From a virus (Duplodnaviria > Caudoviricetes): a stretch of DNA of 63,282 bases. How positions within the stretch are numbered: position 1 is the stretch's first letter; the number at the start of each line of letters is the position of its first letter. The stretch covers positions 1-63,282 of IMG/VR virus record IMGVR_UViG_3300043772_000427; one strand, written 5' to 3'. The notes under the pieces were generated by a model, which ran no database searches, was not told the DNA's origin, and was given only the letters and a program-made list of their open reading frames with translations. Shown one piece after another: positions 2,696 to 38,348 of this stretch. Both the position numbers and the translations under genes were made by a program.

Positions 2696-5289
2696 TCATC
2701 CTTTTTCGTAGGTTTGTTCTGCTGCATCGCAGCTCTTCTCGCGGCTTCTTCAGCGTGACTTAGTTTCTGGGCATGAACTTGCCCGCCGTGAGCCAGCTTC
2801 TGCTGATGCACTTGCCCGCCGTGAGCCATCTTCTGCTGCGCCTGAGCTTGTTGCATCATCATCTGTTGTTGTTGCTGAGCTTGCGCTTGCTGCAACTCCA
2901 TCTGTTTAGCCGCCATCTCTAGAGCATGCAACTCTTGCGCTTGAGCAATCTCTTGCTGTAGTCGCATCGCAGCCAACGCTGGATCCTCGCCAACTCTAGC
3001 TGCGCTCTCTTGTGCCTTGAGTGACAACTCTTCAGCCTTGAGCTGCAAGTCACCCTTGACCTTAAGCGCTTTGATATCAGCTTCTTGTTTCTTGATCTGC
3101 AGTTCAGCTTGCTGCATCTGAATGATCGGATCTTGAGCCTGCGCCATCGCTTGCTGCTGAGCTGCCTTGGCTTTATCCATCTGCAAGAGCTGCGTCGCGG
3201 CCTGCGCCACAAGTTTAGACACCTGCACTTCAACGTTGTTATCAAGCTGTGCATCTGGTGCTGGCAATGTTGCACCCAACTGCTCTTGAACTTTCTGACG
3301 GTACGAGAACGCCAAGTGCTCCGCAACGTGGGCCATGATCGCGCCCTGCATCTGCTGAGCCATAGGGCTCTGACCAATCTGGCCCATGATCATGGGGTCC
3401 TGCATCATGCTGGTATGAACAGCAATGTGTGCATCGTGGTCTTGGTGGATGAACGCTTTTGTAGGTTTACCAGTCAGGAACGACATGTTCTCCGACACGG
3501 GGTCGCGTGGGGTCTGGTCATCATCAATGGGCACTAACTTATCTGCGTTCTTGATGCCAAGCACCTCGATCATCTGTCTGTGAAGTTGCGGCAAGTCATA
3601 GATCTGTGGAGCACCTTGAGCCAACTGAATCACAGCCTGATACTGCATGATGCGCTGAGCCATCGTTGCACTGTTGGGATCTGACACAGGAATCACTGAC
3701 ACCATGTCGTAGTCAGCTTGCTTCGCTTTTCTATCACCCTCAACTGGATCGAAGCTGTACTCTGGCGGAGTGTGATCACGAATGATGTCACGCAGGAGCT
3801 GAAACTCTTGCTTCATGCTGTAGTGAACACGAGCCTGAACTGCAGACATTGTCTTGAGCTGACGCTCCAAGAGAGCTAGCGTTGTACCGACAGGTGCGTT
3901 AGCAGACATATCGCTGATGTTCATATCAGCAATAGAACCCAGACGACGGCCTTCTTCTGTTATGCGGTCAAGCAACCCCGCCAAAACTTGACTTGGCTCT
4001 TTGTACGGCAGGGGCATGATGTTGTCACGCACTGAACCTGACGGCACATCTACATCACGGAACTCACCGGGGTTGATCGGCGTGTCATCTCCCTTGATAC
4101 GCAAGCCGCGTGCTTTAAGGCCGCCGGGCAAGTTACTCAGTGTGCCCGCATCAACAAGTTGTCGAATCAGGGACGTACCAGCACGGGCGTAGCCACCGAT
4201 CAAGTGAATCAAACCTAGACCATAAGCACCAAAACCGGGGACGTATGTGTACTGCACAAAGTGCTGGCGCTTTAACTTGCGCTTGTCATCTTCTTCCCAG
4301 TTGCGGCGAATAGCCAGAACTGTGTTTGTGCCACGCTCGATTGTGATGATATACGGCAGAGCGATACCATCTTCATCTTCATAACCGGGCAGGTCGTAGT
4401 CGATGTGCACTTCCAAGACTTGGTAGCGGTCATCGTCCGTCAGTGAGTAACCCTGATCCTCGGCTTTCTTCTTCTCCACATCTGTGTGGATCGAGACAGG
4501 CTCACCCAAATCTTCATCAACGTAGAAGCCTGCAACCTGCAACTTCTTCATCTCATTTTTGGTCTTACGCATCACATGCGTGAGTCGTTCAGCAGTGGCC
4601 GCGCTCGATGCACCGTAAGGTATGATGATGTCTTCAGCGGGGATGAACATCGCAATCTGACGATCAAGCGATGGGTCAAAATAAACTTTCTTGAATGCCG
4701 CGCCCGCGAGACCTAGGTTGTATAACATGCGCTCATGTTCTGGGCGATACTCAGTCATCACCTCGGTGAGCTGATAGTTCATGTCATCTCTTACACGCTC
4801 AGCCGCCTGCTCTTTAAGTTTATCAATTGCGCCGACGATCTCGGTTTTGACCGGACCCTGAGCAGGGAACGTTTCAATGATAGTCTCGCTTTGGAACCGT
4901 ACAGCAGCTTCTGTGAGTACCGTTGAGAAAACACCGCAAGCACCGAGCCACGGTTCAGTACGCTCTTCATACTTCATCCCCAAAACATCAAGACCTTTGA
5001 CATACATATCAACCCACTCTTTGCGGGAGTTAATGTCAGCATCTACCATCTCAATAATGTCGCTTGCTACTTTCGCCAGCTCGCTCTTATCCATGTCTTC
5101 TGCTAAGTTAGCATCAAAGTCCTCGGCCTTTTCCTCGGGCATCAAGTCAATCTCCATGCCGTCTAGTCCGATGCGAACACCCTCGGGATCCTCAATCTCT
5201 ATCTCAATCACGGGCTCATCACCCATATCTTCCAATGCACTTAAACCCAGCGGGGCTTGCGACAGTGAGGGAACCATATTCGTAGCCAT
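2692..5289 (-). CDS. portal protein (P22-like) with Gln-rich C-terminal barrel
   Basis: 865 aa directly after the terminase; EAAVRFQ, GAAFKKVYFD, YGLGL motifs; long Q/A-rich coiled-coil tail. Confidence 0.9.
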   Translation of the reverse strand: MATNMVPSLSQAPLGLSALEDMGDEPVIEIEIEDPEGVRIGLDGMEIDLMPEEKAEDFDANLAEDMDKSELAKVASDIIEMVDADINSRKEWVDMYVKGLDVLGMKYEERTEPWLGACGVFSTVLTEAAVRFQSETIIETFPAQGPVKTEIVGAIDKLKEQAAERVRDDMNYQLTEVMTEYRPEHERMLYNLGLAGAAFKKVYFDPSLDRQIAMFIPAEDIIIPYGASSAATAERLTHVMRKTKNEMKKLQVAGFYVDEDLGEPVSIHTDVEKKKAEDQGYSLTDDDRYQVLEVHIDYDLPGYEDEDGIALPYIITIERGTNTVLAIRRNWEEDDKRKLKRQHFVQYTYVPGFGAYGLGLIHLIGGYARAGTSLIRQLVDAGTLSNLPGGLKARGLRIKGDDTPINPGEFRDVDVPSGSVRDNIMPLPYKEPSQVLAGLLDRITEEGRRLGSIADMNISDMSANAPVGTTLALLERQLKTMSAVQARVHYSMKQEFQLLRDIIRDHTPPEYSFDPVEGDRKAKQADYDMVSVIPVSDPNSATMAQRIMQYQAVIQLAQGAPQIYDLPQLHRQMIEVLGIKNADKLVPIDDDQTPRDPVSENMSFLTGKPTKAFIHQDHDAHIAVHTSMMQDPMIMGQIGQSPMAQQMQGAIMAHVAEHLAFSYRQKVQEQLGATLPAPDAQLDNNVEVQVSKLVAQAATQLLQMDKAKAAQQQAMAQAQDPIIQMQQAELQIKKQEADIKALKVKGDLQLKAEELSLKAQESAARVGEDPALAAMRLQQEIAQAQELHALEMAAKQMELQQAQAQQQQQMMMQQAQAQQKMAHGGQVHQQKLAHGGQVHAQKLSHAEEAARRAAMQQNKPTKKDE

Positions 5290-6803: not shown

Positions 6804-7356
6804 TGCGGATTACCTTGGCCTGTACATCAATTGTGCGTTTTTCCAGCTTAGCAAGCGTCTCAAGCAGTTCTTTTTCCACTTCTTCAAGGGATTGCTGCTT
6901 GTGAGTGACTTCAGTGCGCTTTTTAAATGCATCAACACCGTCTACATCACCTAATGCCTTGATTGCACCGAGTCTGACGGTACTGTTTGGGTTCTCTGTT
7001 TCGGCAACGAGCTTGTTGACAACGTACAACTTGAAGTCTGCCAGCTCCCGCACGATCATGTGGTCGTACTCAGCCACCATACCGGCAAGATATGCAATGG
7101 TTTCGTTAGGGTACTTGGCTAAATCGGGTGTTGTTTTATTAGCAACAACCTTTTCCATCAACTCAAGGGCTTGGCCTCGGTTCTCAGGGGTAGGTTCTAT
7201 GGGAGTCCCATTCAAATCAGAGATCATTTTGACCGTGCGGGCACGCATCTCAATCTCTTCCTTTGGGGAAAGAGGGGGCATAGCCTCGGTGGCTGAGGCT
7301 GGTAGCGGAATATCCGCTTCAACATTAGGCATCATCTGCATAAGAGGGAATCGCAC
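6787..7356 (-). CDS. putative terminase small subunit
   Basis: About 185-aa helical protein overlapping the terL start; first gene of the late arm. Exact start uncertain. Confidence 0.55.
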   Translation of the reverse strand: MRFPLMQMMPNVEADIPLPASATEAMPPLSPKEEIEMRARTVKMISDLNGTPIEPTPENRGQALELMEKVVANKTTPDLAKYPNETIAYLAGMVAEYDHMIVRELADFKLYVVNKLVAETENPNSTVRLGAIKALGDVDGVDAFKKRTEVTHKQQSLEEVEKELLETLAKLEKRTIDVQAKVIRSEDNA

Positions 7357-7655
7357 TCCTATAAAAGTCAGGTACTAGCCGCTCAATCGCTAGCTTTCGG
7401 AAAAAGTCTTTGCACAGCTTTCCCTGAGAAATAAATATACCACATATTTGTAAAGGGTGGTAGGAATCCTACCCGGGGGGTGTTCCTATATTGAGGGGGT
7501 GGGGTAAACCCTAGACGCTTTTATTTTTACTTGGGATGCTGGGAATGGTTGGGGGAATACGTGGTGGTTTGTGTAAGTCTTAGAGTATAGGGGAACACGG
7601 GAGTCCCAAAGTCTCTTGTGGGGGTCGGGTATGGGTGGGTCGACCCCGCCAGAAC

Positions 7656-7685
7656 TTTACTTTTAACCATGGGATCAGCTATAAC
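7656..7685 (+). promoter_or_regulatory. early promoter P1 (TTTACT-N18-TATAAC)
   Basis: Same layout as 8464-8493 and 9304-9333. Followed by a leader hairpin, an AGGAG RBS and the ATG at 7731. Confidence 0.7.
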
Positions 7686-7730
7686 AGAACCATGCAGAGC
7701 AATAGTGCTGTGCTGTAACAGGAGAGATAA

Positions 7731-7919
7731 ATGTTTAAAGCATTATGGGTTTGGTTGACGCACTACAAGGTTGTAGTGCAGTGGGAAGACAAGTTGTGTG
7801 TTCACTATGCATACACAATGAACGAAGCGCTGAGTTGGTCAGCTCAGTATCGTACCGACAACACGACAGTGCTGATCGGCATCAGGGGCAAGCTAGTCGC
7901 GGCACGCGGCGCTTGGTAA
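7731..7919 (+). CDS. early hypothetical protein
   Basis: 62 aa with AGGAG RBS, between a promoter and a hairpin. Confidence 0.75.
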   Translation: MFKALWVWLTHYKVVVQWEDKLCVHYAYTMNEALSWSAQYRTDNTTVLIGIRGKLVAARGAW

Positions 7920-7922
7920 CAC

Positions 7923-7946
7923 GAGGGGCTTCGGCCCCTCTTCTTT
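7923..7946 (+). terminator. probable intrinsic terminator
   Basis: GAGGGGC-TTCG-GCCCCTC followed by TTCTTT. Confidence 0.7.
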
Positions 7947-7962
7947 AACTTAGGAGAGAGTA

Positions 7963-8148
7963 ATGCAACAGTCAAACTTAGACGCCGTGCATCAGGTCAT
8001 AGTTGATGCAGTTCAAATGTGGGCCAGTGGATTAACTACTGACAACGAACTTTGTGAAGCGCTTCATGGAATCCACTTAGGTTTCTCGGAGCACAGAAAC
8101 AATATGTCCGAACTGATAGACCCAAACACTGGGCTTCGGTACAAATGA
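7963..8148 (+). CDS. early hypothetical protein
   Basis: 61 aa with TAGGAG RBS. Confidence 0.7.
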   Translation: MQQSNLDAVHQVIVDAVQMWASGLTTDNELCEALHGIHLGFSEHRNNMSELIDPNTGLRYK

Positions 8149-8339
8149 CAGTCGGACAGACCAACATATGGCGTAAGCATGTGATGGTTGCTATGCGGGA
8201 GGCGCTACATCAGCGCCGACCTCTTAGTGTCCTACCTAGTCGGTATGAGTTCTTTAAGAAGGCTAGGGAACAAGTGGCTCGCGCAACGTTTTGCGCAAAG
8301 CTAGATGGTGATGAGTACAGCAGGCTCAAGAACCGCTGA
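8145..8339 (+). CDS. early hypothetical protein (basic)
   Basis: 64 aa, ATGA overlap with the upstream gene, ends just before a terminator. Confidence 0.65.
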   Translation: MTVGQTNIWRKHVMVAMREALHQRRPLSVLPSRYEFFKKAREQVARATFCAKLDGDEYSRLKNR

Positions 8340-8341
8340 CC

Positions 8342-8369
8342 AGAGGAGGCTTCGGCCTCCTCTTTTTTT
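8342..8369 (+). terminator. intrinsic terminator
   Basis: AGAGGAGGC-TTCG-GCCTCCTCT plus a T tract. Confidence 0.9.
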
Positions 8370-8381
8370 GTGCCCCGAGAA

Positions 8382-8493
8382 TTGATACCAGTTATTTGTC
8401 GTCGCGGGCGTTAAGCGTGCGCGAGTCAAGCGGATCACTTAGCGTTTCACACCCCGCTGAAACTTTACTTTAGACCCTAGGGTCAGCTATAAC
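8382..8493 (+). repeat. structured intergenic element E1 plus promoter P2
   Basis: TTGATACCAGTTAT box, GC hairpin, CAAGC, TTTCA-N8-TGAAA, TTTACT-N18-TATAAC. Aligns without gaps to 9222-9333 (840-bp offset). Confidence 0.9.
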
Positions 8494-8555
8494 TATTACA
8501 TCAGATAGACAATTCGGTCTGTCTGATATTTCAAAATGCTTTATTAGGAGATATT

Positions 8556-9164
8556 ATGTCTAAAGCAAAACAAGTGGCCCCTTCATTGGGTTCTGTCAAC
8601 GTCACTTCTATGAAGGACGCAGGTTATCAGTCAGCGATCAGCGATGAACGTAAAGACAGCGTAGCGCGCTATGTATATGCGCAATGTCCCAACTTCACCA
8701 ATGAAGTCAGCGATGAAGTTAAAACCCAACTTCGCGCAGGTTGGGCATTACGTTGGCAAGAGTTGAACCCAGCGAAAAGTTATAACGACAGTTGGATTCC
8801 CGTAGAGAATGGCTCTTATGTAATGACTGTTGATGTTTGCTTCAGTTACAGTCAGCAGGCCTTTGGTCAGTTGAAAGAGGCTGACCCAGTCAAGCATGGC
8901 ATTATCAAGGGTGTACGCGATGCCTTCAACAAATACTGTTTTAATCGCATGGCTGACCTAAAGTCAGCGGTACGCAAAGTAGAGAATGAGGGCAAGCCTA
9001 AAGTGAAAGCGCCTACTAAGGGTTTCACGCAATACATTGACGAGACATTCAAGTCAGTCAAGGCCAGAGCCAAGACAGCAAAAGCAAGGGGTGACGATTC
9101 AGCACCTGATGAAGTTAAATTGCGCATGGCCATCGATGCCTTCCACAATACTCTAAGCAAGTAA
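8556..9164 (+). CDS. early hypothetical protein, paralog A
   Basis: 202 aa with TAGGAG RBS; shares long identical blocks with 9387-9980. Confidence 0.9.
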   Translation: MSKAKQVAPSLGSVNVTSMKDAGYQSAISDERKDSVARYVYAQCPNFTNEVSDEVKTQLRAGWALRWQELNPAKSYNDSWIPVENGSYVMTVDVCFSYSQQAFGQLKEADPVKHGIIKGVRDAFNKYCFNRMADLKSAVRKVENEGKPKVKAPTKGFTQYIDETFKSVKARAKTAKARGDDSAPDEVKLRMAIDAFHNTLSK

Positions 9165-9174
9165 CATTGCACCG

Positions 9175-9209
9175 ACCTAGTCAGCCGAAAGGTTGGCTAG
9201 GTTTTTTTT
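9175..9209 (+). terminator. intrinsic terminator
   Basis: ACCTAGTCAGCC-GAAA-GGTTGGCTAGGT plus a T tract. Confidence 0.9.
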
Positions 9210-9221
9210 CGCCTGTACCTT

Positions 9222-9333
9222 TTGATACCAGTTATTTGTCGACGCGCGTGCTTCGTGCGTGTTTGCCAAGCGCATGGTTTACCGTTTCACGCCTCGCTGA
9301 AACTGTACTTATGTGTCTTGTATCGGGTATAAC
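9222..9333 (+). repeat. structured intergenic element E2 plus promoter P3
   Basis: Second copy of the E element, ending in TGTACT-N18-TATAAC. Confidence 0.9.
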
Positions 9334-9386
9334 TTAATCACCAGATGACACGGTGTTGTCTGGATTAACGCTTACTTGGAGATACC

Positions 9387-9980
9387 ATGAGCAAAGCAAC
9401 AAAACCCCAAGAGACAATCGTCTCGTCGTTCAAAGATGCCGCATACCAATCGGCAAGGTCTAGTGAAACAATGGCAGTCATTGCCCGTTTTGTATACGAG
9501 CAGTGTCCTACATTCTGCGAATCACAACCAGATGAGGTCAAGACTCAACTGCGCCTCGGATGGGCTTTGAGATGGCAAGAGTTAAACCCTGCCACAGTAT
9601 TCGACAATGACTGGAAACCAAACCCCAAGGGAGGTTTTACCAATAGTCTGGATTACTGCTTGTCATACTCTCAACAAGCATTTGGGCAACTCAAAGAGGC
9701 CGATCCAATCAAGCATGGTGTCATCAAGGCCGTGCGTGATAACTTTAACAAGTATTGTTCCAATCGTCTTGCCGATCTCAAGGTTGCCGTGCGTAGAGTT
9801 GAGAATGAGGGCAAGCCCAAGGTCAAAGCCCCCACAAAACAATTTGATGATTTCATCAAAGAGTTGTTTACCACAGTCAAAGCCCGTGCCAAAACTGCCA
9901 ATGCACGAGGCGACACAACTGCACCCAATGAGGTTAAATTGCGCCAAGCAATCGATCTGTTTAACAATGCTTTGAAGTAA
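9387..9980 (+). CDS. early hypothetical protein, paralog B
   Basis: 197 aa with GGAG RBS; paralog of 8556-9164. Confidence 0.9.
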   Translation: MSKATKPQETIVSSFKDAAYQSARSSETMAVIARFVYEQCPTFCESQPDEVKTQLRLGWALRWQELNPATVFDNDWKPNPKGGFTNSLDYCLSYSQQAFGQLKEADPIKHGVIKAVRDNFNKYCSNRLADLKVAVRRVENEGKPKVKAPTKQFDDFIKELFTTVKARAKTANARGDTTAPNEVKLRQAIDLFNNALK

Positions 9981-9987
9981 GCATCTG

Positions 9988-10018
9988 TGCACCGCCAGTT
10001 AACGCTGGCGGTGCATTT
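9988..10018 (+). terminator. probable terminator hairpin
   Basis: TGCACCGCCAG-TTAACG-CTGGCGGTGCA with only a short T run. Confidence 0.6.
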
Positions 10019-10102
10019 GATACCAGTTATGAGTCCTCGCGTGCGCTAAGTGCGTGCGTGTGAGCCAAGCCGATCAACTACCGTTTCAGGGGTGCGTGAA
10101 AT
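10017..10102 (+). repeat. structured intergenic element E3 (no promoter part)
   Basis: TTGATACCAGTTAT, GC/GT hairpin, CCAAGC, CGTTTCA-N8-TGAAA. Confidence 0.85.
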
Positions 10103-10146
10103 GGGTAAGCAAGTAACAGCCATTGATTATCTCAAGAGACATGTCC

Positions 10147-10690
10147 TGTGGATAACTTTATTTGTTCCAAGATTCCAACTGGACTGGAACTTTGGAATCG
10201 CTAATTGGAATCTTGGAATCTGAGTAAAAACAAAATTCCAACTTGGAATTCCAGTATTTGCCTCTTATGTAAAGTTGTTCCAATTTGGAACACAAAATTG
10301 GAATCTTGTAAGTGCTTGATTTTAAACAAGAAAACACCACTTTTGACCTAAAAATTCCAAAATTCCAGTTTTTCAAAAGGACAAAGCTGGTTGGAGCAAT
10401 AATTTGGAAGAGCAAGACTGTGTCAGCAAGTGCGATGTCCCACAAAACAGCAAATTATGGTGTTTTTCTCATTTTGCCCGACGTCCCTGCAAATCGCTGG
10501 AATCTTGGAATTTTGGAATAAATATAATTTTTTTTTTTTTTTACTACTACTACTACTCTACTCTTTATATTCATTTCATAACCTTAGTAGTACTTTTCCA
10601 GATTCCAATTCACCCCAATTTGTTCCAAAAACCCGTTCCAATAACCCCCCAAAAAGTCTAACTGTACATATCCAATTCCAATCCCTGTAC
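10147..10690. other. putative replication origin
   Basis: Gene-free and AT-rich. Nine exact TTCCAA and nine exact TTGGAA hexamers, a DnaA-box match (10147-10155), an IHF consensus match (10309-10321) and a T15 tract (10528-10542). Confidence 0.65.
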
Positions 10691-10711
10691 ACTACGCCCC
10701 AAGCCCTGCAC

Positions 10712-10781
10712 CTCAACAAAGTCACCCCACACCCCTATGTTTATAAGTAAAGTTATGTTACAATTGAGTCTGAGTCGGGGA
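10712..10781 (+). promoter_or_regulatory. class-II promoter repeat, copy 1 (extended -10 TGtTACAAT)
   Basis: Near-identical to 12450-12519 (CTCAACAAAGT...CCCTATGTTTATAnGTAAAGTTATGnTACAAT...GTCGGGGA). Confidence 0.75.
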
Positions 10782-10842
10782 ATAAGCGCCTGCAAACCTC
10801 TCCAACTCAAGCCTTTGCCAACCCCAAGACGACCAACAATCG

Positions 10843-10860
10843 TTTCACGGGTGGGTGAAA
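10843..10860. promoter_or_regulatory. TTTCA-N8-TGAAA palindrome (putative operator)
   Basis: One of six copies; lies in the leader upstream of 10902. Confidence 0.65.
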
Positions 10861-10901
10861 TCAAGTTAGTTCAATTCAGTTCAATTTAGTTAGGAGTCAT
10901 C

Positions 10902-11237
10902 ATGAAAGCTAAGTTTGTCGTCTCTCCCTCCCTCGTTGCCAAAATGCAACGCGAGATGCTCGACCATCTCCCCCGTTCTATCCGCAAGACATTGCGCATT
11001 ACAACCCCCAAGGCACAACCCATTGCCAAAACACCCATCGACACAGACCAAATCGTGTCGGACTGGCTAGCGATTCACGACCCCATGAACGAGTCGCACT
11101 ACTACTGCACAAACACAGTTGACCCTGCGTTTGACTTCGATGAATTCCGCGACATCGACAACGAGTACGAGGGTCTGACAGTTGTCAGTATGGGCAAAGA
11201 CACAAGACGTTGGCTCAAGGGCTACAACATCCTCTGA
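10902..11237 (+). CDS. hypothetical protein
   Basis: 111 aa with TAGGAG RBS. Confidence 0.8.
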   Translation: MKAKFVVSPSLVAKMQREMLDHLPRSIRKTLRITTPKAQPIAKTPIDTDQIVSDWLAIHDPMNESHYYCTNTVDPAFDFDEFRDIDNEYEGLTVVSMGKDTRRWLKGYNIL

Positions 11238-11258
11238 ACAAATTACAAAGGAAACAAC

Positions 11259-11411
11259 ATGACTGATATAAACATTGTGCTGATGGAGATAGCACGTATA
11301 GCCTTGGAAGACGAGGCTACTTTCAACCGCATCGGGCATGAGCTTGACTTGTCCGATGAGGAACTTAACAAAGTCCGTGCCCATGTTGCGCTAGAGGAGG
11401 AAACAACATGA
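11259..11411 (+). CDS. small hypothetical protein (50 aa; not in the ORF track)
   Basis: AAGGA RBS; MTDINIVLMEIARIAL...; ATGA overlap with 11408. Confidence 0.65.
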   Translation: MTDINIVLMEIARIALEDEATFNRIGHELDLSDEELNKVRAHVALEEETT

Positions 11412-11671
11412 AACATTACATTGGTGAAGTCGAGACTTATTTCGGTGAAAGTGAGGTCAGTACTATGATTAAGTTCAAGACTGATTCACACCCCGATGAA
11501 TACCTAGATAAAGTTGCTTCAGACTTTTGGGGTAACGAGGGTGAGCAGATTGGTGACGAGACTGTCAGCATCTACGACTTCGGTGATAAGAACGCAAGCG
11601 CAGGGCGTTGGCAAGAGATTGATGCCGACATGTTCAACAAACTAACTTTAATTGTGGAGATAGTGCGATGA
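11408..11671 (+). CDS. acidic hypothetical protein
   Basis: 87 aa with GAGGAGG RBS. Confidence 0.75.
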   Translation: MKHYIGEVETYFGESEVSTMIKFKTDSHPDEYLDKVASDFWGNEGEQIGDETVSIYDFGDKNASAGRWQEIDADMFNKLTLIVEIVR

Positions 11672-11871
11672 AAGTAAGAGACATACGCAAGCGCAGGGCA
11701 AAGAGCAAGTACCAATCCAATGGTTCGTTCAGCTTCTTACGCCTGAGTCAGACTAAGCGTTGCCGTACCTACGAGGAGGGATGCTTTATCTGTGACCCAT
11801 GGCACTTCTACGACACGCACAAGCGTTTCCCCACATGGCACGAATTGATGGATGAAGGAGTAATGAAATGA
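11668..11871 (+). CDS. hypothetical protein (Cys-containing)
   Basis: 67 aa with ATGA coupling. Confidence 0.7.
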   Translation: MKVRDIRKRRAKSKYQSNGSFSFLRLSQTKRCRTYEEGCFICDPWHFYDTHKRFPTWHELMDEGVMK

Positions 11872-12041
11872 AAGCATGGAAAGGTGTGGTGATAACCACA
11901 TATCAGGAAGAAATCACAGTACTGGCTGACACGAAAGAGGAAGCCGAGTTACTCATGTACGACCGCGCAAACCCAATGGGTGACAGCATAAGTGGTGAGA
12001 TGGAAGTGCATGACTTAATTGAATTGGGAGAAACAAAATGA
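11868..12041 (+). CDS. small acidic hypothetical protein (57 aa; not in the ORF track)
   Basis: AAGGAG RBS; MKAWKGVVITTYQEEITVLADTKEEAE...; ATGA coupling on both sides. Confidence 0.7.
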   Translation: MKAWKGVVITTYQEEITVLADTKEEAELLMYDRANPMGDSISGEMEVHDLIELGETK

Positions 12042-12229
12042 AAATGGTATGGATACTGTGGAGCAACGATATGTTCAGCAGTAAGGTAAAGCACGATGAC
12101 AAGCAAGGCGTTCACATTGTTGAGTTGTTTGCTCACAAGATTGATGCCGAGGCGTTCATGCGTATATGCAGGGAGGAAGATGACCCGATTGGTGGTCGCT
12201 ATTGGATACAAGAAAGGGAAGTGAAATGA
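12038..12229 (+). CDS. hypothetical protein
   Basis: 63 aa, translationally coupled. Confidence 0.7.
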   Translation: MKMVWILWSNDMFSSKVKHDDKQGVHIVELFAHKIDAEAFMRICREEDDPIGGRYWIQEREVK

Positions 12230-12435
12230 CTGACCAACAGAACTTACCCACAATACACGTTCGCGTAATGGATGTGTATGGGAAGAGAGTTGTTTACCCC
12301 GTGTGCGACCATGCCAAAGTGTTTGCCAGTATCGCGGGCACAAAGACTCTGACTGAAGTAACTCTCAGATGTATTCAGAAGCTCGGCTATGAGATACATG
12401 TCATACCGCAAGAGCCTTTAACGCTAGACCTTTAA
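12226..12435 (+). CDS. hypothetical protein
   Basis: Start at MTDQQ; DVYG...YPVC..AK.FA.IAGTKTLT motif. Confidence 0.7.
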   Translation: MTDQQNLPTIHVRVMDVYGKRVVYPVCDHAKVFASIAGTKTLTEVTLRCIQKLGYEIHVIPQEPLTLDL

Positions 12436-12449
12436 CGCTATACATATAG

Positions 12450-12519
12450 CTCAACAAAGTTGGGGTAAATCCCTATGTTTATATGTAAAGTTATGGTACA
12501 ATGGAATCTGTGTCGGGGA
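12450..12519 (+). promoter_or_regulatory. class-II promoter repeat, copy 2 (extended -10 TGgTACAAT)
   Basis: Repeat of 10712-10781. Followed by a leader hairpin (12508-12533) and TTTCA-N8-TGAAA (12547-12564). Confidence 0.75.
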
Positions 12520-12596
12520 GTAACTCGACACAGCCATCACTTACCGTTTCACGGTACGGTGAAATTCAATTCAGTTTTATTTAGTCAGGAGATAGT

Positions 12597-12878
12597 ATGG
12601 GACAGTTCAAAAACATCGACACAATCCTGCGTCAAATCGCAGACGACACCAACGTACATCCATCCATCCGCGATGCGATGCGCAACACATCCGTAAAGCA
12701 AGCACCTGTCGACAAAGTGTATTTGCTTCTTTGCGACGGCAATGTGACCGACGTATTCACCGACAAAGACATGGCGATGTACGACCTGCATACATGCATC
12801 AAGGCAGACGAGGCAGAGGGTCTTGACCATGAGTGGAAAGTCATTGTCCGTCAGCTCACAACCACAACCCTTCCATGA
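12597..12878 (+). CDS. hypothetical protein
   Basis: 93 aa with AGGAG RBS. Confidence 0.75.
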   Translation: MGQFKNIDTILRQIADDTNVHPSIRDAMRNTSVKQAPVDKVYLLLCDGNVTDVFTDKDMAMYDLHTCIKADEAEGLDHEWKVIVRQLTTTTLP

Positions 12879-13078
12879 TACCTAGCTGTTCAGCCTGTGG
12901 TGAACTTTACTCTGCACAACGCCATCGCATGGGATATACATTGTGTATGCCATGTGGCGAGAAACACGCGCGTAGTACCAAACACACTATCGTGCCGATG
13001 CCCAAGTCCAACTACATCGTTGTGACTGATCGTTCTCTATTACTTAATCTCAACTCAAGCCACAAGGGAGGCCGTTAA
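12875..13078 (+). CDS. small CxxC-CxxC zinc-finger protein
   Basis: CSAC...R...GY.LCMPC, resembling a DksA/TraR-type C4 finger. Confidence 0.65.
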   Translation: MIPSCSACGELYSAQRHRMGYTLCMPCGEKHARSTKHTIVPMPKSNYIVVTDRSLLLNLNSSHKGGR

Positions 13079-14170: not shown

Positions 14171-14210
14171 TCATTCACCCAACCCTGAAACATTAACCGA
14201 AGGAAACACC

Positions 14211-31895: not shown

Positions 31896-32097
31896 AGCGG
31901 CCCCACTCGACGAACCCGAGTGGCTTTTCCCCTACGAGTACATGCTTGTGGGGGAGAGTTTCTTTATCCCAACTATGCGCCCCGCATATATGGGCTACAT
32001 CATAGACACAACGTCTAAAAAAGTTGGAATAAAGATGAAGACTTTCACTTGCACCGAGAACGGCGTCCTCGGTGTTCGTTCTTGGCGCATGGGTTAG
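31873..32097 (+). CDS. small hypothetical protein
   Basis: FP...M.VGESFFIP...GVRSWR; converges with the - arm. Confidence 0.7.
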   Translation: MSKKPPSEAAPLDEPEWLFPYEYMLVGESFFIPTMRPAYMGYIIDTTSKKVGIKMKTFTCTENGVLGVRSWRMG

Positions 32098-35000
32098 GGT
32101 TCAACACCCATCATCTCAAAGTCTTCAATGATTCCACGCTTAACTAAGTTTTGGAACTTAACAACATTCTTAACAGCTTCCGTCCGTTCCTTGGGAGTCA
32201 GGCCCGGCATACGGCGGTAGATGTTTGCCTCTTCCCGCAACTTCTTCAAGTCTTGGTTGATTACTTTGTTGTAATGCTCAACTATGTACTCGTCCATGGG
32301 ATTCTTCTCAACGTATCGAGCGTACGCTTCTGGGTTTGAATCCTTGAACATGTTGAGCTTTTGTTGCTTAGTCAAGATTTGTTTCTCAACCTCTGAGAAC
32401 TGCCGTGCGTCAAAGTTTGACGGTGCGCCAAAAAAGCTATCAAAGAACACGGTGTCAGTCTTAGGATTAAATGCCTTCTCACCAGCCGCAAGCAAACCGT
32501 AGTTGTATCCAGTCTGCGCCAAACGCATCAGTCCATCGCCATAGTTATTGGCAAAGAAGTACATCGTGTTAGGACTCCAGTCCACTTTACCGTCCGTGAT
32601 TTCAGCCAGAGTACGTGCGGCAGACTTATACAACTCAGGGATGTTGTCGCCACCTGTGTAGGCATCTCCGTAGCGTGACTGACGGTTGTTATAAATCTCA
32701 CGACCTAGACCGTCAATGTTCATCACCCACTCAAGGAACGGACGCGCAACGGAAGGTGTAGCAGAGTCCATCGCCCATGCTGGGAAGTTGTCTATTGGAC
32801 TAATGCGCGAAACCGGCAGCGGCAAGAACGAATCCAAACCTGTCACAACAATGTTGCTAAGCGCAGTCTTAACAGATGAGTTGCCTGTAGCCAACGCCGC
32901 GATTTGTCCACCAGCAGATGCAAATGCGCCAAGTCCAAAGCCCCAAGGGATCTGGATGGGTGTATCCATGCCGGGAATATGGAAGCGAGCGTAACGTGAC
33001 CAGCGGTTTGCGTCATCAGTAGCAGTGCGGTTGCGGCCTAAATCATCATCGTCAGACAATGCCATAGACATCAAATAGATTGCACTACCCATACCAAGCA
33101 AGCCCAAGGTCATTGCGGTAGCGGCCTTCTTCTGGTCGTTGTACTTCTTCAAGAATTCAGCGCTAGCTACTTTATCTTTCTGAATGTACTCAGGCAGTTC
33201 TTTCAACGCATCTTTTGGGTCGCGTAGCATTGGGCCTAATGTTTCAATAGCCCTAACAGCACCAGTAGCGGCTGGACGGAAGAACATGAACGCCGCACCA
33301 GCGGCACGGCCCCACTCACCAACTTGTTCAAAGTTAGCAAGACCTTTAGCATAACCAGCAGCTTTGACTTGCGCATCGGCGGGGGAAAGATTTTCTGCCA
33401 GTGCTTGAGATTTGGCAATACGATACGCCGCAGTGCGGCTTGCCAATTCAAACATGTCGGTGTAAATGTCAACAAACTTGTCGATCTGATCCTTGGTCTT
33501 TAGGATGCCTGTGCGGTCAAGCGACTTCTGTAACTCTTTAAACTGACCCTTAGAAGAAAGACCAGCAAGATACGATACTTTGCCGCCCTGCTCGATGAAC
33601 TCAAGCATGTCACGTACATAGTCACTCTTCTTTGCCATTGCTCTAATTTGGTCAAACTTACCAGCTTCATACAGCGCGGCAACTTTAGCGGCGCGGAACA
33701 AACCACCATTTGCTACATTTGTAGCGATAGCGCCGATGTATTGCGCGGAAGCTTTTGGACCCATCTCAACACCAATTGAGTATGCGTTGGTCAGAGCATC
33801 GCGGAAGAAGTTAACTGGCGCGAACGCTATGTTGTAACGAGTATGCATCTGACCAACAGTGCTAGTAACGTGGTTCAGCATGTCAATGATTGGTTGAGAC
33901 TGCTCGTAAGTGCGGCGGATAGCGTTGCGTTGCGCCTTGTCATAGATCTCGATTACATCAATACTGCCATCTTTGTTGTAATGGAAGATGACGTTTTCTT
34001 TTTTCTCTTCGCCAATGTTTAAGTCTTTGTAGCGATCTGCAAATGGAATTGTTTTAGCGATCCTACCTTTAAGTAGTTGATTACCGTCTTTGTCTTTGGC
34101 TACGGCGTTCTTGATAGCAAGTGTTACGTCTCTACGGCCAGCACGCATAGCGGCACGCGTTGCATCAGTCAACGATTGGACGATAGAGTTATCGGAGTCA
34201 GTCTCACGACCTTCAAAAGAGTTTTGACCCTCTTGCATTTCACGGCCTAGACGGTTGCTATTGAAGTCAAGCATCGCATCAGCTTCATTGGTGTACTTTT
34301 CTTTACCAGCAAAAGGTACGTAGTTCTTCCAGCCGTAAAAGTCCACAATACTTTGCACGGGCGCTGACCAGTAGTTAGCTTCTTTGTTCAGCTCTTTTGT
34401 GGCGTCTTGCAGTTTGCGCATGGCGGCAATGACTTTGTCCACTTCTTTCCTGTTAGGATCACCCTCATAAGACTTAATGAAGTTCTTGATAGAGTTTGGT
34501 GTGTAGCCACCAATGACGTTGTACTCCTCATTGTCACGTTCAATAGACTTAGAACCGTTGGGGCTTGAGCCAGTTGGATCTTTATACTTAGCCACAACAT
34601 TATTAAGCGCATTGCGAGCGGTCTCAATCTGTGTCTTGTTCAATGTGCCAGACAACACTTCATCCATGATGCGCTCACGGAACCCGGCGGGGCTTAAGAT
34701 TTCATTACCAATCTTAAGAATCTTGTCATCCTTAAGCGGTACATTGAGCATGTACTTCACGTCACGACGTTCACCTTCGTGCAGACCCATCAGGTATACA
34801 TGTAAACGCTCGGTCGCTTCTTTGGTAGTCAAACCTGAAGCTTTAGCATACGCACCAATAGCACTCTGCATATCACTTGCTGGAGTATTTACTCTGGTTA
34901 AGTACAAGTCTTTGGCGCGTGAAGCAGCTAAGGCAATCTGTGTATAGATGTTGTTTAGTTTGCTACCGCTATAAATAATTTTACCGGCACGGGTCAAACC

Positions 35001-38000
35001 ATCTTCCCAGCTCTTAATTGCATAACGAGCATTTTGGAATTTAGTCACCAAGTTCATACCGCCTTGGCGCGTTGTAAACAATCTGCGCACCGCATTGATA
35101 CCGCTTGTCTCAGGCAGTTCATTACGCTTAATTGCTTCTTCAGTTGTTACATCAACTTTACCTTCAGCTTTTTGTGTAGTTGGAGCGGCTTTAGGAGCGG
35201 GAAGCGGTGCGCGTTCAATCCCGCCCTCTGGCACTTCAATAATACTTTCAAATGCGGTGAAGGCTTCGGACAGTAAGTTTGCTTTACCAAACGCGCCAGA
35301 TTTTGTAAACAGATTCTTTAAATTAAGAATCTCAATAACATTCTCTATAAACCTAGAGAGCGCACTGCGGTCTGGGGTAAGTGTGTACTCAAGTCCTGTG
35401 GCTGGATATTTTTTCAGCGCATCCTGAAACTCTGGGTTAGAAATCGCTTCACTAACAAACTCAAAAATGTTTTTGTACGCATTGGGGAACAACTCGGCAA
35501 GATCACTTGCCGTAAGTGCCATGATGTCATCAAGCTGGTTAGCCGCATCAATCTGCTCAGGCGTCAGGTTAGCAATATCGTTATTAGATACTCTATCAAG
35601 AATTTTTATTGTTGCGGCATGAACAAGCTCATGCAGTAGTGTAGTGGCTGTTGCGCCTTCTGGTGTCACTAAGATAGTGTCAGACTCTGGGTTGTACTGC
35701 GCAATGTCACCATCAGGCAGTGAGTCAACGTACTTGATCTTTGTCTTTAGTCCTAAACTTTTAATACGTGAAGCAACGAGTCGCTGAAGCTTTATAGCGA
35801 TTGTTTTATTAGGATTAGGAATTGAAGTAGACAACCAATTTAGCACTGCTCCAAGATCACCTTCTTTGATCTTATCAATCAAAGCATTGGGGACTTTCTT
35901 TTCGCCCGTAGGTTTAGCTTTCTTGCCTTCGCGCTTTTCTTTAATTTCACGTTGCGCACGCTCTTGAGACTCAGCTTCAGACTTTTTAAGTTGCGCTTCA
36001 CGTACATCAAGATAGGTCTTACCGGGAGCGGGAATGTAACCTTCTTGTACAAGCTTATCTGCAACTGCTTTAAAAGCCGTATCGTGATCTTCAGCGGTGG
36101 CGTTCTTTATGTCTTTTTGTTTGTCAGACAAAGTTTTGTTGTACAGCGCACGTTGCTCATCATTGAGCTGCTCCCATGTGGGGTACTCTAGCCTGTCACG
36201 AGATTTGTATGCTTGGCGGTTGCGCTCATAGATGCCGGCAGACGGATCAGCTTTAAGATCTTTGGGCTTACCTTGCGTCTCACGCAGTTGCTTGCGGTAT
36301 CTAACCAAAGCGCGACGCGCACTAGCGTGTTCTTGAGCAGTGTTGTTGCGGACGTTATCCAAATAGACCTGACGCTGGTCATCTGTAAGTTTCTCCCATG
36401 GCACAAGCACGGCACGCTTATCGTCAATCTGCTGTTTCAGATCGTTAAGCGCTTCGTTTACTGCTTCAACCTTAGCTTGTGGTGGCAGTGTTTCAAAGTT
36501 GTCTGGCAGGTCAGGCAGTTCTAACTCATTGCGCTCAAGCACGGCATCAAGACGAGCAGTGCCCAACTCCATACCAGCCGGAAGTTTTCCAGTTTGAAGC
36601 GCGTCATAAAGGTTTGCGCCGTCGTCATCTAGTTTGGCATACTCGCGCTCTTCGTCATACAAGTCAGCAACCTGTTTGACTTTCTCGTCCATTTCTTTTT
36701 TAACTTCTTCGGAAGGACCGGTCTTTACTGCAACGGACTCTGTTCCTTTTCCTTCAGCAGCACCTGTAACATCCGGTCCAGTAGAAACCACTCCATCTCG
36801 TTTAGCTTCTCCAGATCCCGGGGCGGGGGGAACGATGACGGTTGATTGTGGAGGTAGCGTAGTGCTCGTTCCAGCTGCTTCACTGACAGTTCCTGTAACA
36901 TCTTCCGCTCCCTTCGGGCTGATCTTAGATAACGCATCGTCAATCTTTGCTTTAAGTTCCGCGTTTTCTTTACGTTTTCTAGTGAGTTTGGATTTTTCAC
37001 CCGCATTAAGTGTAGTGCCGCGAGACTCTAGTTCTTTGATCTCAGCATCACGTTTATCGTAATCGGCCTGCATAGCGGCGACTTCTGCCGGTGCTCCAGT
37101 CTTAATTTCTGCCGGTGTTTCTACAACAGTGCCGGGCGCAACTTCTTCAAACTCAGTGCCAACGATTGAAGGCTTACCTTCTTTTTTAACTTCTGTTGTA
37201 GCGGGTTCTTCTACGACAGCTTCTTGTTTCTGTTGTTCCTCTTCGCGCTGCTTGAGTGCTTCTTGTCTTAGAACTTCATCACGTATTTGTTGATCTGTTT
37301 GACGGCCCCCAACGATGCCAGTTACTCCGCCCATACCAGCAGCGCCCAATGACGCCATAGCCGCAGTTTCGCCTAAGCCCGAAGTTAAATCACGATCAAG
37401 ACCAGCGGTGCGGGCTGCAATGTTTTGCGCAAGGCGACCACCAACTTCTTCAACGTTCTCACTAGGCAGTTCTTTAAGTGCGCCTGCAACACCACCACGT
37501 ATGATCCCTTTACCTGTTTTCTCGCCAGCAAGCACGCGCTCAAGCGCACTACCACCGGGCAAGAAACGATTTGCAAGAACAGACAGCGCGTAGCCCGATA
37601 CACCAGCGGCACGGGCTAAATTAATTGTCTCAGCCGCAGCGCGTTCAGCGGGCATTCTCTTAGACAACTCTGCGTAGATCTCGTCGTATGAGCCAGCGCC
37701 AATGTCTGCGCCTTGTTGTACTGCGCCAGTTTGAACAGCGGCAGTTGTACCAGACTTAATAGCGGCTTTCTTAGCGGCAGCTTCAGCGGCTTCTTTTGCC
37801 GTGCCTTTAGCTAGTTCTTTGGCTAACGTACTACCAGATGTAAGCGCGGCTGTACCACCACCTGTGATAGCGGCAGGGATAATCTGTGGAAGTTGCTCAG
37901 CTAAGAATGATGTCAACAGCGCTGGGTCAGAAACAGTCTCACCAAAAGCTGCTTTAAATGCGGCAAGTTGACCTTCTTTTTCTGCTTGCGCAACCTTCTC

Positions 38001-38348
38001 AGAGCGAGCCTTTTCACGAGCAAGCAAGGACGCGGACTTTAAGCCCTTTGCATATTCTTCAATGTCTTGACCAGCGCCCAATGCGCCCGTCTTAGAAAAG
38101 TCGCCTGTAGCTAAACCGTAGAGCTGACCGGGAAGTTGGACCAAACTGCCAATACCACCCAAACCAGCGGCCCCAATATCGGTAAACGCTTCACCAAAAG
38201 TACGCTCTGGGATTTTAGGCGCGGCAGGTTTAGGAGCAGGTCTTTGTCCTTGTGCATGAGTTGTATATGCCCATTGCCAAGCAGTGTTAGGGTCTGGCGC
38301 ATCTACTTCGTATGTTTTATTCCCAACATCTACTTGGTATGTAGGCAT
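32094..38348 (-). CDS. giant virion / ejection protein with HExxH and LPD38-like C-terminus
   Basis: 2084 aa; N-terminal Ala/Gly membrane-like helices, TLLHELVH, C-terminal IP..WGFG and P.LE...N.D..GR.I. Confidence 0.7.
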   Translation of the reverse strand: MPTYQVDVGNKTYEVDAPDPNTAWQWAYTTHAQGQRPAPKPAAPKIPERTFGEAFTDIGAAGLGGIGSLVQLPGQLYGLATGDFSKTGALGAGQDIEEYAKGLKSASLLAREKARSEKVAQAEKEGQLAAFKAAFGETVSDPALLTSFLAEQLPQIIPAAITGGGTAALTSGSTLAKELAKGTAKEAAEAAAKKAAIKSGTTAAVQTGAVQQGADIGAGSYDEIYAELSKRMPAERAAAETINLARAAGVSGYALSVLANRFLPGGSALERVLAGEKTGKGIIRGGVAGALKELPSENVEEVGGRLAQNIAARTAGLDRDLTSGLGETAAMASLGAAGMGGVTGIVGGRQTDQQIRDEVLRQEALKQREEEQQKQEAVVEEPATTEVKKEGKPSIVGTEFEEVAPGTVVETPAEIKTGAPAEVAAMQADYDKRDAEIKELESRGTTLNAGEKSKLTRKRKENAELKAKIDDALSKISPKGAEDVTGTVSEAAGTSTTLPPQSTVIVPPAPGSGEAKRDGVVSTGPDVTGAAEGKGTESVAVKTGPSEEVKKEMDEKVKQVADLYDEEREYAKLDDDGANLYDALQTGKLPAGMELGTARLDAVLERNELELPDLPDNFETLPPQAKVEAVNEALNDLKQQIDDKRAVLVPWEKLTDDQRQVYLDNVRNNTAQEHASARRALVRYRKQLRETQGKPKDLKADPSAGIYERNRQAYKSRDRLEYPTWEQLNDEQRALYNKTLSDKQKDIKNATAEDHDTAFKAVADKLVQEGYIPAPGKTYLDVREAQLKKSEAESQERAQREIKEKREGKKAKPTGEKKVPNALIDKIKEGDLGAVLNWLSTSIPNPNKTIAIKLQRLVASRIKSLGLKTKIKYVDSLPDGDIAQYNPESDTILVTPEGATATTLLHELVHAATIKILDRVSNNDIANLTPEQIDAANQLDDIMALTASDLAELFPNAYKNIFEFVSEAISNPEFQDALKKYPATGLEYTLTPDRSALSRFIENVIEILNLKNLFTKSGAFGKANLLSEAFTAFESIIEVPEGGIERAPLPAPKAAPTTQKAEGKVDVTTEEAIKRNELPETSGINAVRRLFTTRQGGMNLVTKFQNARYAIKSWEDGLTRAGKIIYSGSKLNNIYTQIALAASRAKDLYLTRVNTPASDMQSAIGAYAKASGLTTKEATERLHVYLMGLHEGERRDVKYMLNVPLKDDKILKIGNEILSPAGFRERIMDEVLSGTLNKTQIETARNALNNVVAKYKDPTGSSPNGSKSIERDNEEYNVIGGYTPNSIKNFIKSYEGDPNRKEVDKVIAAMRKLQDATKELNKEANYWSAPVQSIVDFYGWKNYVPFAGKEKYTNEADAMLDFNSNRLGREMQEGQNSFEGRETDSDNSIVQSLTDATRAAMRAGRRDVTLAIKNAVAKDKDGNQLLKGRIAKTIPFADRYKDLNIGEEKKENVIFHYNKDGSIDVIEIYDKAQRNAIRRTYEQSQPIIDMLNHVTSTVGQMHTRYNIAFAPVNFFRDALTNAYSIGVEMGPKASAQYIGAIATNVANGGLFRAAKVAALYEAGKFDQIRAMAKKSDYVRDMLEFIEQGGKVSYLAGLSSKGQFKELQKSLDRTGILKTKDQIDKFVDIYTDMFELASRTAAYRIAKSQALAENLSPADAQVKAAGYAKGLANFEQVGEWGRAAGAAFMFFRPAATGAVRAIETLGPMLRDPKDALKELPEYIQKDKVASAEFLKKYNDQKKAATAMTLGLLGMGSAIYLMSMALSDDDDLGRNRTATDDANRWSRYARFHIPGMDTPIQIPWGFGLGAFASAGGQIAALATGNSSVKTALSNIVVTGLDSFLPLPVSRISPIDNFPAWAMDSATPSVARPFLEWVMNIDGLGREIYNNRQSRYGDAYTGGDNIPELYKSAARTLAEITDGKVDWSPNTMYFFANNYGDGLMRLAQTGYNYGLLAAGEKAFNPKTDTVFFDSFFGAPSNFDARQFSEVEKQILTKQQKLNMFKDSNPEAYARYVEKNPMDEYIVEHYNKVINQDLKKLREEANIYRRMPGLTPKERTEAVKNVVKFQNLVKRGIIEDFEMMGVEP

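Follow-up and report, generated by a model that had tools for sequence, protein, structure and literature searches.

The virus genome considered here, IMG/VR record IMGVR_UViG_3300043772_000427, is complete in that record, with a length of 63,282 bp, and was analysed over its whole length, referred to below as the window. Among its early genes, a composite intergenic element is found three times (E1, E2 and E3), in alternation with two small genes, geneA and geneB, in the order E1-geneA-E2-geneB-E3 (Table 1). A first-pass annotation of the bare sequence had placed the same element at 8382, 9222 and 10017, and an exact search confirms this: the 14-mer box TTGATACCAGTTAT occurs at exactly these three sites, all on the + strand, and no further site in the window has fewer than two mismatches to it. 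The three sites are confined to one 1.7-kb block of the genome.

The box forms the first part of a rigid, asymmetric core of ∼30 nt, TTGAnACCAGTTAT-n-TGTC-nn-CGCG-n-G-n-G. With a weight matrix trained on family members without the window, the sites in E1-E3 score 44-49 bits, and the next-best site of the genome scores −0.6, the same as shuffled sequences. As first described, E1 and E2 can be aligned with an offset of 840 bp and no gap; the match extends over 125 nt (71% identity), and the pentamer CAAGC is unchanged in all three copies. The copies are taken to be real and under constraint because the box is identical at 14 of 14 positions in E1-E3, while neighbouring intergenic DNA is 42-69% identical; conservation of the box far exceeds neutral decay of a single tandem duplication.

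Table 1. Coordinates of the genes, element modules and neighbouring features in the window.
Feature	Position	Strand	Evidence
Intrinsic terminator of the upstream small-ORF unit: 9-bp stem, TTCG loop, T run (hairpin 8342-8363)	8342-8370	+	hairpin scan
E1 core (box TTGATACCAGTTAT and n-TGTC-nn-CGCG-n-G-n-G)	8382-8411	+	exact search, conservation, weight matrix
E1 (C/T)G-alternating tract (the 'GC hairpin' of the first-pass annotation) and CAAGC	8401-8431	+	alignment, pairing controls
E1 inverted repeat GTTTCA-N8-TGAAAC, directly 5′ of the −35	8444-8463	.	repeat search, covariation
Putative sigma70-like promoter of geneA: −35 TTTACT, 18-nt spacer, −10 TATAAC	8464-8493	+	inferred from sequence
geneA, 202 aa, basic, all-alpha, predicted homodimer	8556-9164	+	open reading frame (ORF), structure model
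Intrinsic terminator after geneA: 13 pairs, T run (hairpin 9174-9203)	9174-9211	+	hairpin scan
E2 core (box and TGTC/CGCG block)	9222-9251	+	exact search, weight matrix
E2 inverted repeat GTTTCA-N8-TGAAAC	9284-9303	.	repeat search
Putative sigma70-like promoter of geneB: −10 TATAAC at 9328-9333	9304-9333	+	inferred from sequence
geneB, 197 aa, paralogue of geneA (65% identity)	9387-9980	+	ORF, alignment
Hairpin after geneB, abutting the box, whose first T's are its short T tract	∼9988-10015	+	sequence
E3 core (box and GAGTC-CT-CGCG block)	10017-10046	+	exact search, weight matrix
E3 inverted repeat GTTTCA-N8-TGAAAT	10083-10102	.	repeat search
Only exact DnaA-box consensus match of the genome	10147-10155	−	motif scan
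Iteron-rich non-coding region, putative replication origin bordered by E3	10164-10681	.	repeat counts

The core is widespread in viral metagenomes, so that homologues exist well outside the duplication present in the window. The geneA protein, used as query and thus independently of the box, retrieves 21 IMG/VR loci at 37-95% identity. Twenty of these carry two or three boxes with at most two mismatches on the strand of the gene, and the twenty-first ends at the gene and has no upstream DNA. A degenerate pattern search adds at least 119 IMG/VR stretches. The box is found in at least 145-149 IMG/VR loci, in one to four copies each and always in a single orientation per locus. Among the 145 box-bearing loci listed, 47 have one box, 50 have two and 48 have three, with mixed strands in none; four copies appear in some loci once one extra mismatch is allowed. 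These loci hold 210 unique cores.

In relatives, the indel-free conserved block reads T-TTGA(t/a/g)(A/g)CCAGTTAT-n-TGTC-n-y-CGCG-n-G-n-G. Information amounts to ∼1.3-2 bits at positions 1-14, 16-19, 22-25 and 27 (0.9 bit at position 5) and drops to near 0 on either side. The collection filter required a CG(C/A)G and positions 7-11, which are biased by it; the protein-anchored subset, which is free of this bias, displays the same block. On the 3′ side, an alignment of 130 family sequences (A3) displays a tract of ∼10-60 nt that is succeeded by an inverted repeat and then by a promoter-like block. Tandem box pairs 46-120 nt apart with no gene between them are also seen (L236:4692-4800, L095:3171-3279, L148:2114-2222 and, on the − strand at about 3220-3270 of the reversed locus, L075); in these pairs the downstream block is degenerate at the first box.

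In three cultured relatives by terminase large subunit, 023Pt_psg01, DSL-LC04 and HTVC023P, box-like matches are no better than those of a backwards-pattern control; cultured relatives of this kind also lack geneA, by tblastn. A blastn search in distant mode with 7900-10600 against 50,697 phage records gives no match, nor does tblastn with geneA against the same records. In species-representative bacterial genomes, a pattern with 19 specified bases finds only two loci, a search that host sites sharing just the 14-nt box would escape. One is a lone match. The other, L255, is a 1.9-kb phage-like contig in a bin of a Bacteroidetes metagenome-assembled genome; it encodes a geneA-family ORF and contains two boxes, but is probably stray phage DNA caught in the bin and no evidence on the host. 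Motif strings looked up in 8.4 million papers and preprints return only unrelated primer matches.

Downstream of the core lies an alternating (C/T)G tract. The first-pass annotation had described it as a GC-rich hairpin whose pairing is kept while its sequence varies, and its readings as a structured small RNA or a single-strand-folding signal rested on this covariation, which does not survive controls. In the A3 alignment, 75.7% of cells pair in the proposed register, against 75.7 ± 0.4% after shuffling (226 of 500 shuffles reach the observed value); with the 3′ partner slid by −2 or +2 columns the proportion is 74.4% or 71.9%. The covariation score is 0.192 against 0.190 in the control. Shuffling and sliding thus reveal no significant covariation among these members. 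Single sequences do form stems of 6-10 bp, in which G-T makes up 28% of the pairs (375/1342), but stems are equal or longer when the 3′ region is reversed without complementing, and shuffling costs only about one pair. The dinucleotides CG, GC, GT and TG make up 57% of the tract, and purines and pyrimidines alternate over a median of 10 nt at the longest stretch, compared with 5 nt in control DNA; the + strand is G + T-rich, with 40% G and 29% C. As an alternating pyrimidine-G tract can self-pair whenever the register is even, what looked like covariation is compositional, and the G-T pairs likewise follow from the alternating composition.

A further pairing, between AGTTAT of the box and a downstream ATAACT, is not conserved: ATAACT is found downstream in 48 of the 210 unique elements, and the ATAACT of E3 belongs to a DnaA-box match. 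A scan of the whole window against Rfam at the gathering score gives no match, and E-value mode over 7350-13000 gives sub-threshold, chance-level rows only, none of them on an element, in line with the original remark that no described RNA family is recognizable. The idea that the tract is hypervariable was rejected, as 32 pairs with both coding flanks at least 90% identical have a mean tract identity of 0.907 (median 1.0) against 0.95-0.96 in the flanks. A chi-like or Z-DNA role of the tract is possible.

As had been proposed, each copy in the window is preceded by a hairpin or terminator: two are terminator-like, with T runs, and the third hairpin abuts the box. The arrangement is general. 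A hairpin of at least 5 bp (median 10 bp) is found within 50 nt upstream of the box in 207 of 210 elements, and it either abuts the box (gap of −2 to +2 nt, ∼45 cases) or has a T run and lies ∼10-20 nt away from it. The abutting hairpins use T's of the box as their T tract.

Promoter-like sequences follow the core at no fixed distance. A promoter score of at least 8 of 12 is reached in 89 of the 210 elements, and in those the −10 lies anywhere between 64 and 144 nt from the box; with such variation, the core is not considered to be attached to the promoter. The geneA promoter-like sequence also recurs without a box at 7643-7685, as a member of the same promoter family. The −10 regions at 8486-8493 and 7678-7685 read GCTATAAC and fit GCTANAWC, an alphaproteobacterial −10 consensus. 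This pattern follows 21 of the 210 elements against 2.5 expected, and hints weakly at what the host may be. Besides the promoter family that follows E1 and E2 there is a second early one, represented by two 74-nt repeats, 81% identical, at 10712-10785 and 12450-12523; in each, a promoter with an extended −10-like TGnTACAAT is followed by a hairpin.

The inverted repeat GTTTCA-N8-TGAAA, noted earlier together with CAAGC, is present in all three window elements. Unlike the tract, it passes the pairing controls. Across the family (TTCA-N8-TGAA type), 79.5% of cells are paired against 69.0 ± 0.9% after shuffling (0 of 500 shuffles reach it), double changes number 64 cells against 17.7 expected, and only 11-45% of cells pair in slid registers. 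There are few G-U pairs, and the half-sites are clade-specific (TTTCA, GGTCA, CTCAG, CCAC and others). In most aligned members the repeat lies flush against a −35-like block. It is a separate module and not part of one structured unit as had been thought, as exact copies also occur without a box at 10842-10861, 12546-12565 and 35411-35430. The first two sit in 5′ leaders downstream of the repeated TGnTACAAT promoters, and the third falls inside the gene for a 2084-aa protein; a copy with one mismatch, at 14173-14191, is intergenic and just 5′ of an ATPase gene at 14211. Together, the box-free repeats resemble a small operator regulon. From its sequence, we read the inverted repeat as a putative operator for a dimeric regulator.

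The place of the core between neighbouring units can be seen from mosaic loci. There are 220 element pairs whose right flanks are at least 85% identical over at least 400 nt. Their left flanks are shared in 114 pairs, partly shared in 62 and without homology in 44, and in 31 of these 44 the similarity ends at the left edge of the box. The reverse case, in which the left flank is kept and the right flank is non-homologous, is limited to 4 pairs, with 22 more partial. The mosaic junctions and the position of the hairpin indicate that the core belongs to the downstream unit, as its first conserved feature. The gene between elements also varies: it is mostly of the geneA family (110 unique), but three unrelated gene clusters are found as well, and the cassette architectures (0,0), (0), (1,0) and (1,0,0) account for 39, 44, 10 and 5 loci among those listed. 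The earlier suggestion of a cassette-shuffling site or boundary gains support from these variable genes and from the junctions. In locus L122 (4667-4800), where geneA is ∼95% identical, the E2 promoter region is closer to the promoter of E1 than to that of E2 in the window (9222-9360), a sequence pattern that suggests gene conversion between element copies.

The two genes between the elements are paralogous, with 65% identity in DNA and likewise in protein. The geneA product has an isoelectric point of 9.3, and its AlphaFold model (pLDDT 93.6) is all-alpha. It belongs to no Pfam or PHROG family and has no PDB profile match; Foldseek against PDB and BFVD finds nothing at E ≤ 0.001, VIA-align finds only a helical hairpin (Z ≤ 5.9), and the ESM Atlas holds only viral hypothetical clusters. 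The family is viral only. A symmetric homodimer is predicted, with an ipSAE of 0.83 against 0.00 for the best of three controls; among solved structures, 20 of 30 homodimers and 1 of 23 single chains attain the ipSAE mark applied. Agreement between the three dimer runs is 100% of contacts, with a partner pLDDT of at least 87. On this model, geneA is a candidate binder of the inverted repeat. The co-occurrence of boxes with homologues of geneA and geneB, raised as a question by the first-pass annotation, is pronounced: a geneA-family ORF adjoins 203 of the 237 boxes with adequate flanks and is encoded in 43 of the 45 loci with 2.5-kb flanks.

The last copy in the window does not lead into a gene. 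E3 is followed by ∼540 bp of non-coding DNA (10157-10700) with TTGGAAY/RTTCCAA repeats in both orientations and the DnaA-box match at its left edge. A 518-bp portion, 10164-10681, holds 17 of the 39 TTGGAAY sites of the genome, and the region also contains a T15 run and (TAC)7. The same arrangement is common among relatives. A 6-mer is repeated at least six times (median 12) in the 500 nt after the last box in 68 of 76 cases, against 15 of 138 for inner boxes; the repeats are clade-specific (TTCCAA, AGAACA, GTTCAA and AATGTTACC). The sequence features of the region 3′ of E3 indicate that it is probably a replication origin. The genome encodes a DUF927 primase-helicase of 954 aa, whose C-terminal helicase part matches PDB 8tch_A, a pathogenicity-island replication protein (E 3e-7), and which is nearly restricted to the clade, with only five weak matches among the 50,697 phage records. 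By analogy with the SaPI and P4 initiators, this protein is likely to be the iteron binder.

Packaging and structural genes (terminase, portal, capsid and the 2084-aa LPD38/HExxH virion protein) run leftward from ∼7356, and small early genes followed by replication genes run rightward from ∼7731. The replication genes encode, besides the primase-helicase, a family-A DNA polymerase, an SNF2 helicase and a PD-(D/E)XK nuclease. A 127-bp terminal repeat is an assembly overlap. By terminase, the closest cultured phages are 023Pt_psg01, DSL-LC04 and the Pelagibacter phages HTVC023P and HTVC027P, at only 47-52% identity. No RNA polymerase is found among ORFs of at least 500 aa, which were scanned with Pfam and PHROGs or belong to a non-polymerase PHROGs family (the terminase by tblastn), although a very divergent one could escape; neither a sigma factor nor an RNA polymerase is found in these or in the early and middle ORFs scanned. 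No repressor-like domain or integrase is recognized among the ORFs scanned in the window. The 2084-aa ORF (32094-38348, − strand) displays an HExxH motif, an LPD38 domain and a hydrophobic C-terminal region, and a PDB sequence search gives no match; its product is a polyvalent ejection-type protein and not an RNA polymerase. At 7440-7640, where leftward packaging genes and rightward early genes diverge, the intergenic DNA is rich in G runs, and a comparable G-rich stretch lies immediately 5′ of the first box in locus L164.

Several described systems share features with this arrangement, and are compared here as far as the cited accounts describe them. PeSLs (promoter-early stem-loops) of T4-type phages are terminator-promoter composites that act as exchange points between unrelated sequences (Comeau et al. 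2014, PMC4122927; Arbiol et al. 2010, PMC2839356). Like PeSLs, the elements described here are short intergenic units in which a stem-loop terminator, with G-T pairs, is combined with a putative sigma70-like early promoter (PMC2839356); they recur within one genome beside small genes whose function is unknown, and are located where otherwise unrelated sequences join. The stem-loop is present upstream of nearly all elements, and in most is then followed by a T run; junctions at the box edge are found as in exchange points; and promoter-like hexamers follow E1 and E2 and reach the score given above in 89 elements, with the last copies facing iterons. PeSLs occur ∼50 times per genome, in hyperplastic regions of T4-type myoviruses, and in those accounts consist of no more than a stem-loop and a promoter with AT-rich DNA upstream (PMC2839356; PMC4122927). 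In contrast, two to four copies are found here, only in the origin-proximal block of a ∼63-kb non-T4 phage, and an extra conserved 30-nt core, neither promoter nor terminator, and a separate covarying inverted repeat are added.

The stoperators of Cluster A mycobacteriophages are short, asymmetric, oriented intergenic sites (PMC6550527) bound by a monomeric protein (PMC9283540). They offer a working analogy, as a 13-14-bp asymmetric intergenic site in single orientation with respect to transcription. Stoperators are numerous, spread genome-wide and bound by the immunity repressor of temperate phages; the window has three sites in one block, with no repressor or integrase recognized. The early promoters of phage N4 have a 5-7-bp stem with a 3-nt loop, act from the template strand and are read by a giant virion RNA polymerase (PMC4496689). 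The three conserved copies 5′ of early genes and the GC-rich inverted-repeat sequence are reminiscent of these promoters as reported. However, no virion RNA polymerase is seen among the ORFs of at least 500 aa scanned, within the limit stated above, and the putative hairpin lacks covariation, would pair on the non-template strand only and varies widely in loop and tract length. Frpo and ssi signals differ in that no structure-conserved extended hairpin is present here, the only covarying helix being the 5-6-bp inverted repeat, which is found elsewhere too. The region bordered by E3 resembles iteron origins of the SaPI and P4 type in its iterons, AT-rich stretch, DnaA-box match and encoded DUF927 primase-helicase. 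We know of no counterpart of the box in those origins.

The three copies represent a family-conserved composite intergenic control region and not one structured RNA. What was first perceived as one element is a chain of separate modules, as is evident from the recurrence of the promoter part and of the inverted repeat without the box. The early impression that there is more structure here than a promoter needs stands as far as the extra conserved core and modules are concerned, but these do not form one folded unit. The modules follow each other in a fixed order: terminator hairpin, 30-nt core, (C/T)G tract of variable length, clade-varying inverted repeat (the putative operator) and then a putative promoter or the probable origin. 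Inner copies would provide a sigma70-type promoter that drives a small cassette gene, mostly of the geneA family, and the last copy would lead into the iteron-rich, AT-rich region that is probably the origin.

The core itself may be a site on the DNA that a conserved trans-acting factor recognizes, within a PeSL-like regulatory cassette, a reading that is put forward tentatively and falls short of probable. One conserved factor would recognize the core as double-stranded DNA, and the core would mark the 5′ edge of every origin-proximal cassette and of the origin itself. Once bound, it would act in cis, on cassette transcription or insulation or on the use of the origin, and, being conserved, it would double as the joint where unrelated upstream genes recombine onto cassettes, as in PeSL-like modular shuffling. 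Binding of a protein to the core, the identity of the binder and the effect of binding are what we infer. Several points weigh against this reading. By association, geneA is the best candidate for the binder, but its predicted symmetric dimer would suit a palindrome better than the asymmetric 30-nt core, and no DNA-binding domain is recognizable in the early ORFs scanned. A mosaic junction at the left edge might be expected for the first conserved feature of any downstream unit, and is no proof that recombination takes place inside the box. Judged from the sequences, the core stays invariant though iterons, palindromes and geneA diverge strongly, which is unusual for the site of a phage regulator and suggests that its partner evolves slowly and is either part of the host machinery or an enzyme of replication. 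The strict orientation, the position after a terminator and the contiguous block of ∼30 nt would also be expected of a promoter-like signal.

A slowly evolving partner keeps alive the possibility, unlikely in our estimation, that the core is a non-canonical initiation signal, either a promoter for host RNA polymerase with an alternative or phage-supplied specificity factor or a sequence-specific site at which the clade-specific primase-helicase is loaded or begins priming. Chains would then begin at or just past the box and enter the origin when started at E3, or the cassettes when started at E1 or E2. Consistent with this are the contiguous, asymmetric block with an A/T-rich end, its co-orientation with genes, its place just behind a terminator and its variable spacing to the sigma70 promoter, the G + T-rich + strand of the tract, the last copies that face iterons and not a gene (68 of 76), and the near restriction of the primase-helicase to the same clade; a core that is constant across clades in which regulator sites drift would also be expected of a conserved enzyme. 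On the other hand, the scanned ORFs yield no RNA polymerase or sigma factor, no −10-like hexamer is present at a workable distance from TTGAnA of the box, the conserved 'spacer' bases are unexpected for a sigma-type promoter, and, as all three copies share their strand and lie to the same side of the origin, priming would be possible in a single direction only. It is less probable still that the core is a mere PeSL-like linker, kept by ordinary terminator and promoter function or by recombination and gene conversion, with a role only as a shuffling joint. The location of mosaic junctions at the box, the variation in cassette content and number, as in (0,0), (1,0) and (1,0,0), the L122 promoter that suggests conversion between copies and the exchange-point behaviour reported for T4-type PeSLs (PMC4122927; PMC2839356) fit such a linker, but the core is neither terminator nor promoter and lies between them at a variable promoter distance. 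At most two mismatches are seen where the flanking protein is down to 37% identity, which homogenization alone should not achieve, and the surrounding intergenic DNA varies freely, with information near 0.

A structured RNA, as a small or cis-acting RNA partnered with the paralogous proteins, or a Frpo- or ssi-like fold of single-stranded DNA with G-T pairs on the + strand, is considered very unlikely. Stems rich in G-T pairs do form in single sequences, the strand bias is strict, and ∼45 of the 207 upstream hairpins lack a full T run, so that some read-through RNA would include the box. Against this stand the absence of covariation, the control stems that are equal or longer on reversal, the tract length that varies from ∼10 to ∼60 nt, the terminator that directly precedes the box with no promoter 5′ of it, and the lack of an Rfam match; the only covarying helix is nearly free of G-U pairs, is also found independently of the box and sits at positions typical of a DNA operator. 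If a gene had been duplicated or triplicated in tandem with its upstream region and had left a neutral remnant, this would account for the paralogous genes and the colinearity of E1 and E2, but the probability of such an origin is negligible: the box is unchanged in three copies where coding sequences are 65% and flanks 42-69% identical, the same box lies beside non-homologous genes, and it is found in at least 145-149 loci of a diverse family.

Other candidates for the core were rejected. With TTGATA as −35, a sigma70 promoter would lack its −10 at 16-18 nt. Only partial matches are obtained for a sigma54 promoter, an integration host factor site and a two-block promoter of the heat-shock or extracytoplasmic function type, and the 'spacer' itself is conserved. 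A leader peptide is inconsistent with the differing lengths, the lack of a ribosome-binding site and variable positions that are out of codon phase, and a leftward promoter or bidirectional terminator was rejected from the sequence.

The core provides a sharp, searchable 30-nt marker (∼45 bits in the window sites) for a large uncultured phage clade represented by at least 119 IMG/VR contigs, and it pinpoints the origin-proximal early block of this clade. It also reveals PeSL-like modular exchange outside the T4-type phages. The tract serves as a caution in that alternating (C/T)G sequences imitate covariation, and the covarying operator can be told apart from such a compositional pseudo-hairpin. 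A more far-reaching, rather doubtful possibility is that the core is a new sequence-specific initiation or barrier signal, present three times on one strand beside an iteron origin, that couples early-cassette transcription to origin firing. It might then be a start site, for the clade-specific primase-helicase or for a host RNA polymerase redirected by some unrecognized phage factor, or a polar roadblock of protein bound to DNA, in effect a 'stoperator' in a lytic marine phage. If so, it would offer a handle on early transcription around the origin in phages without an RNA polymerase of their own.

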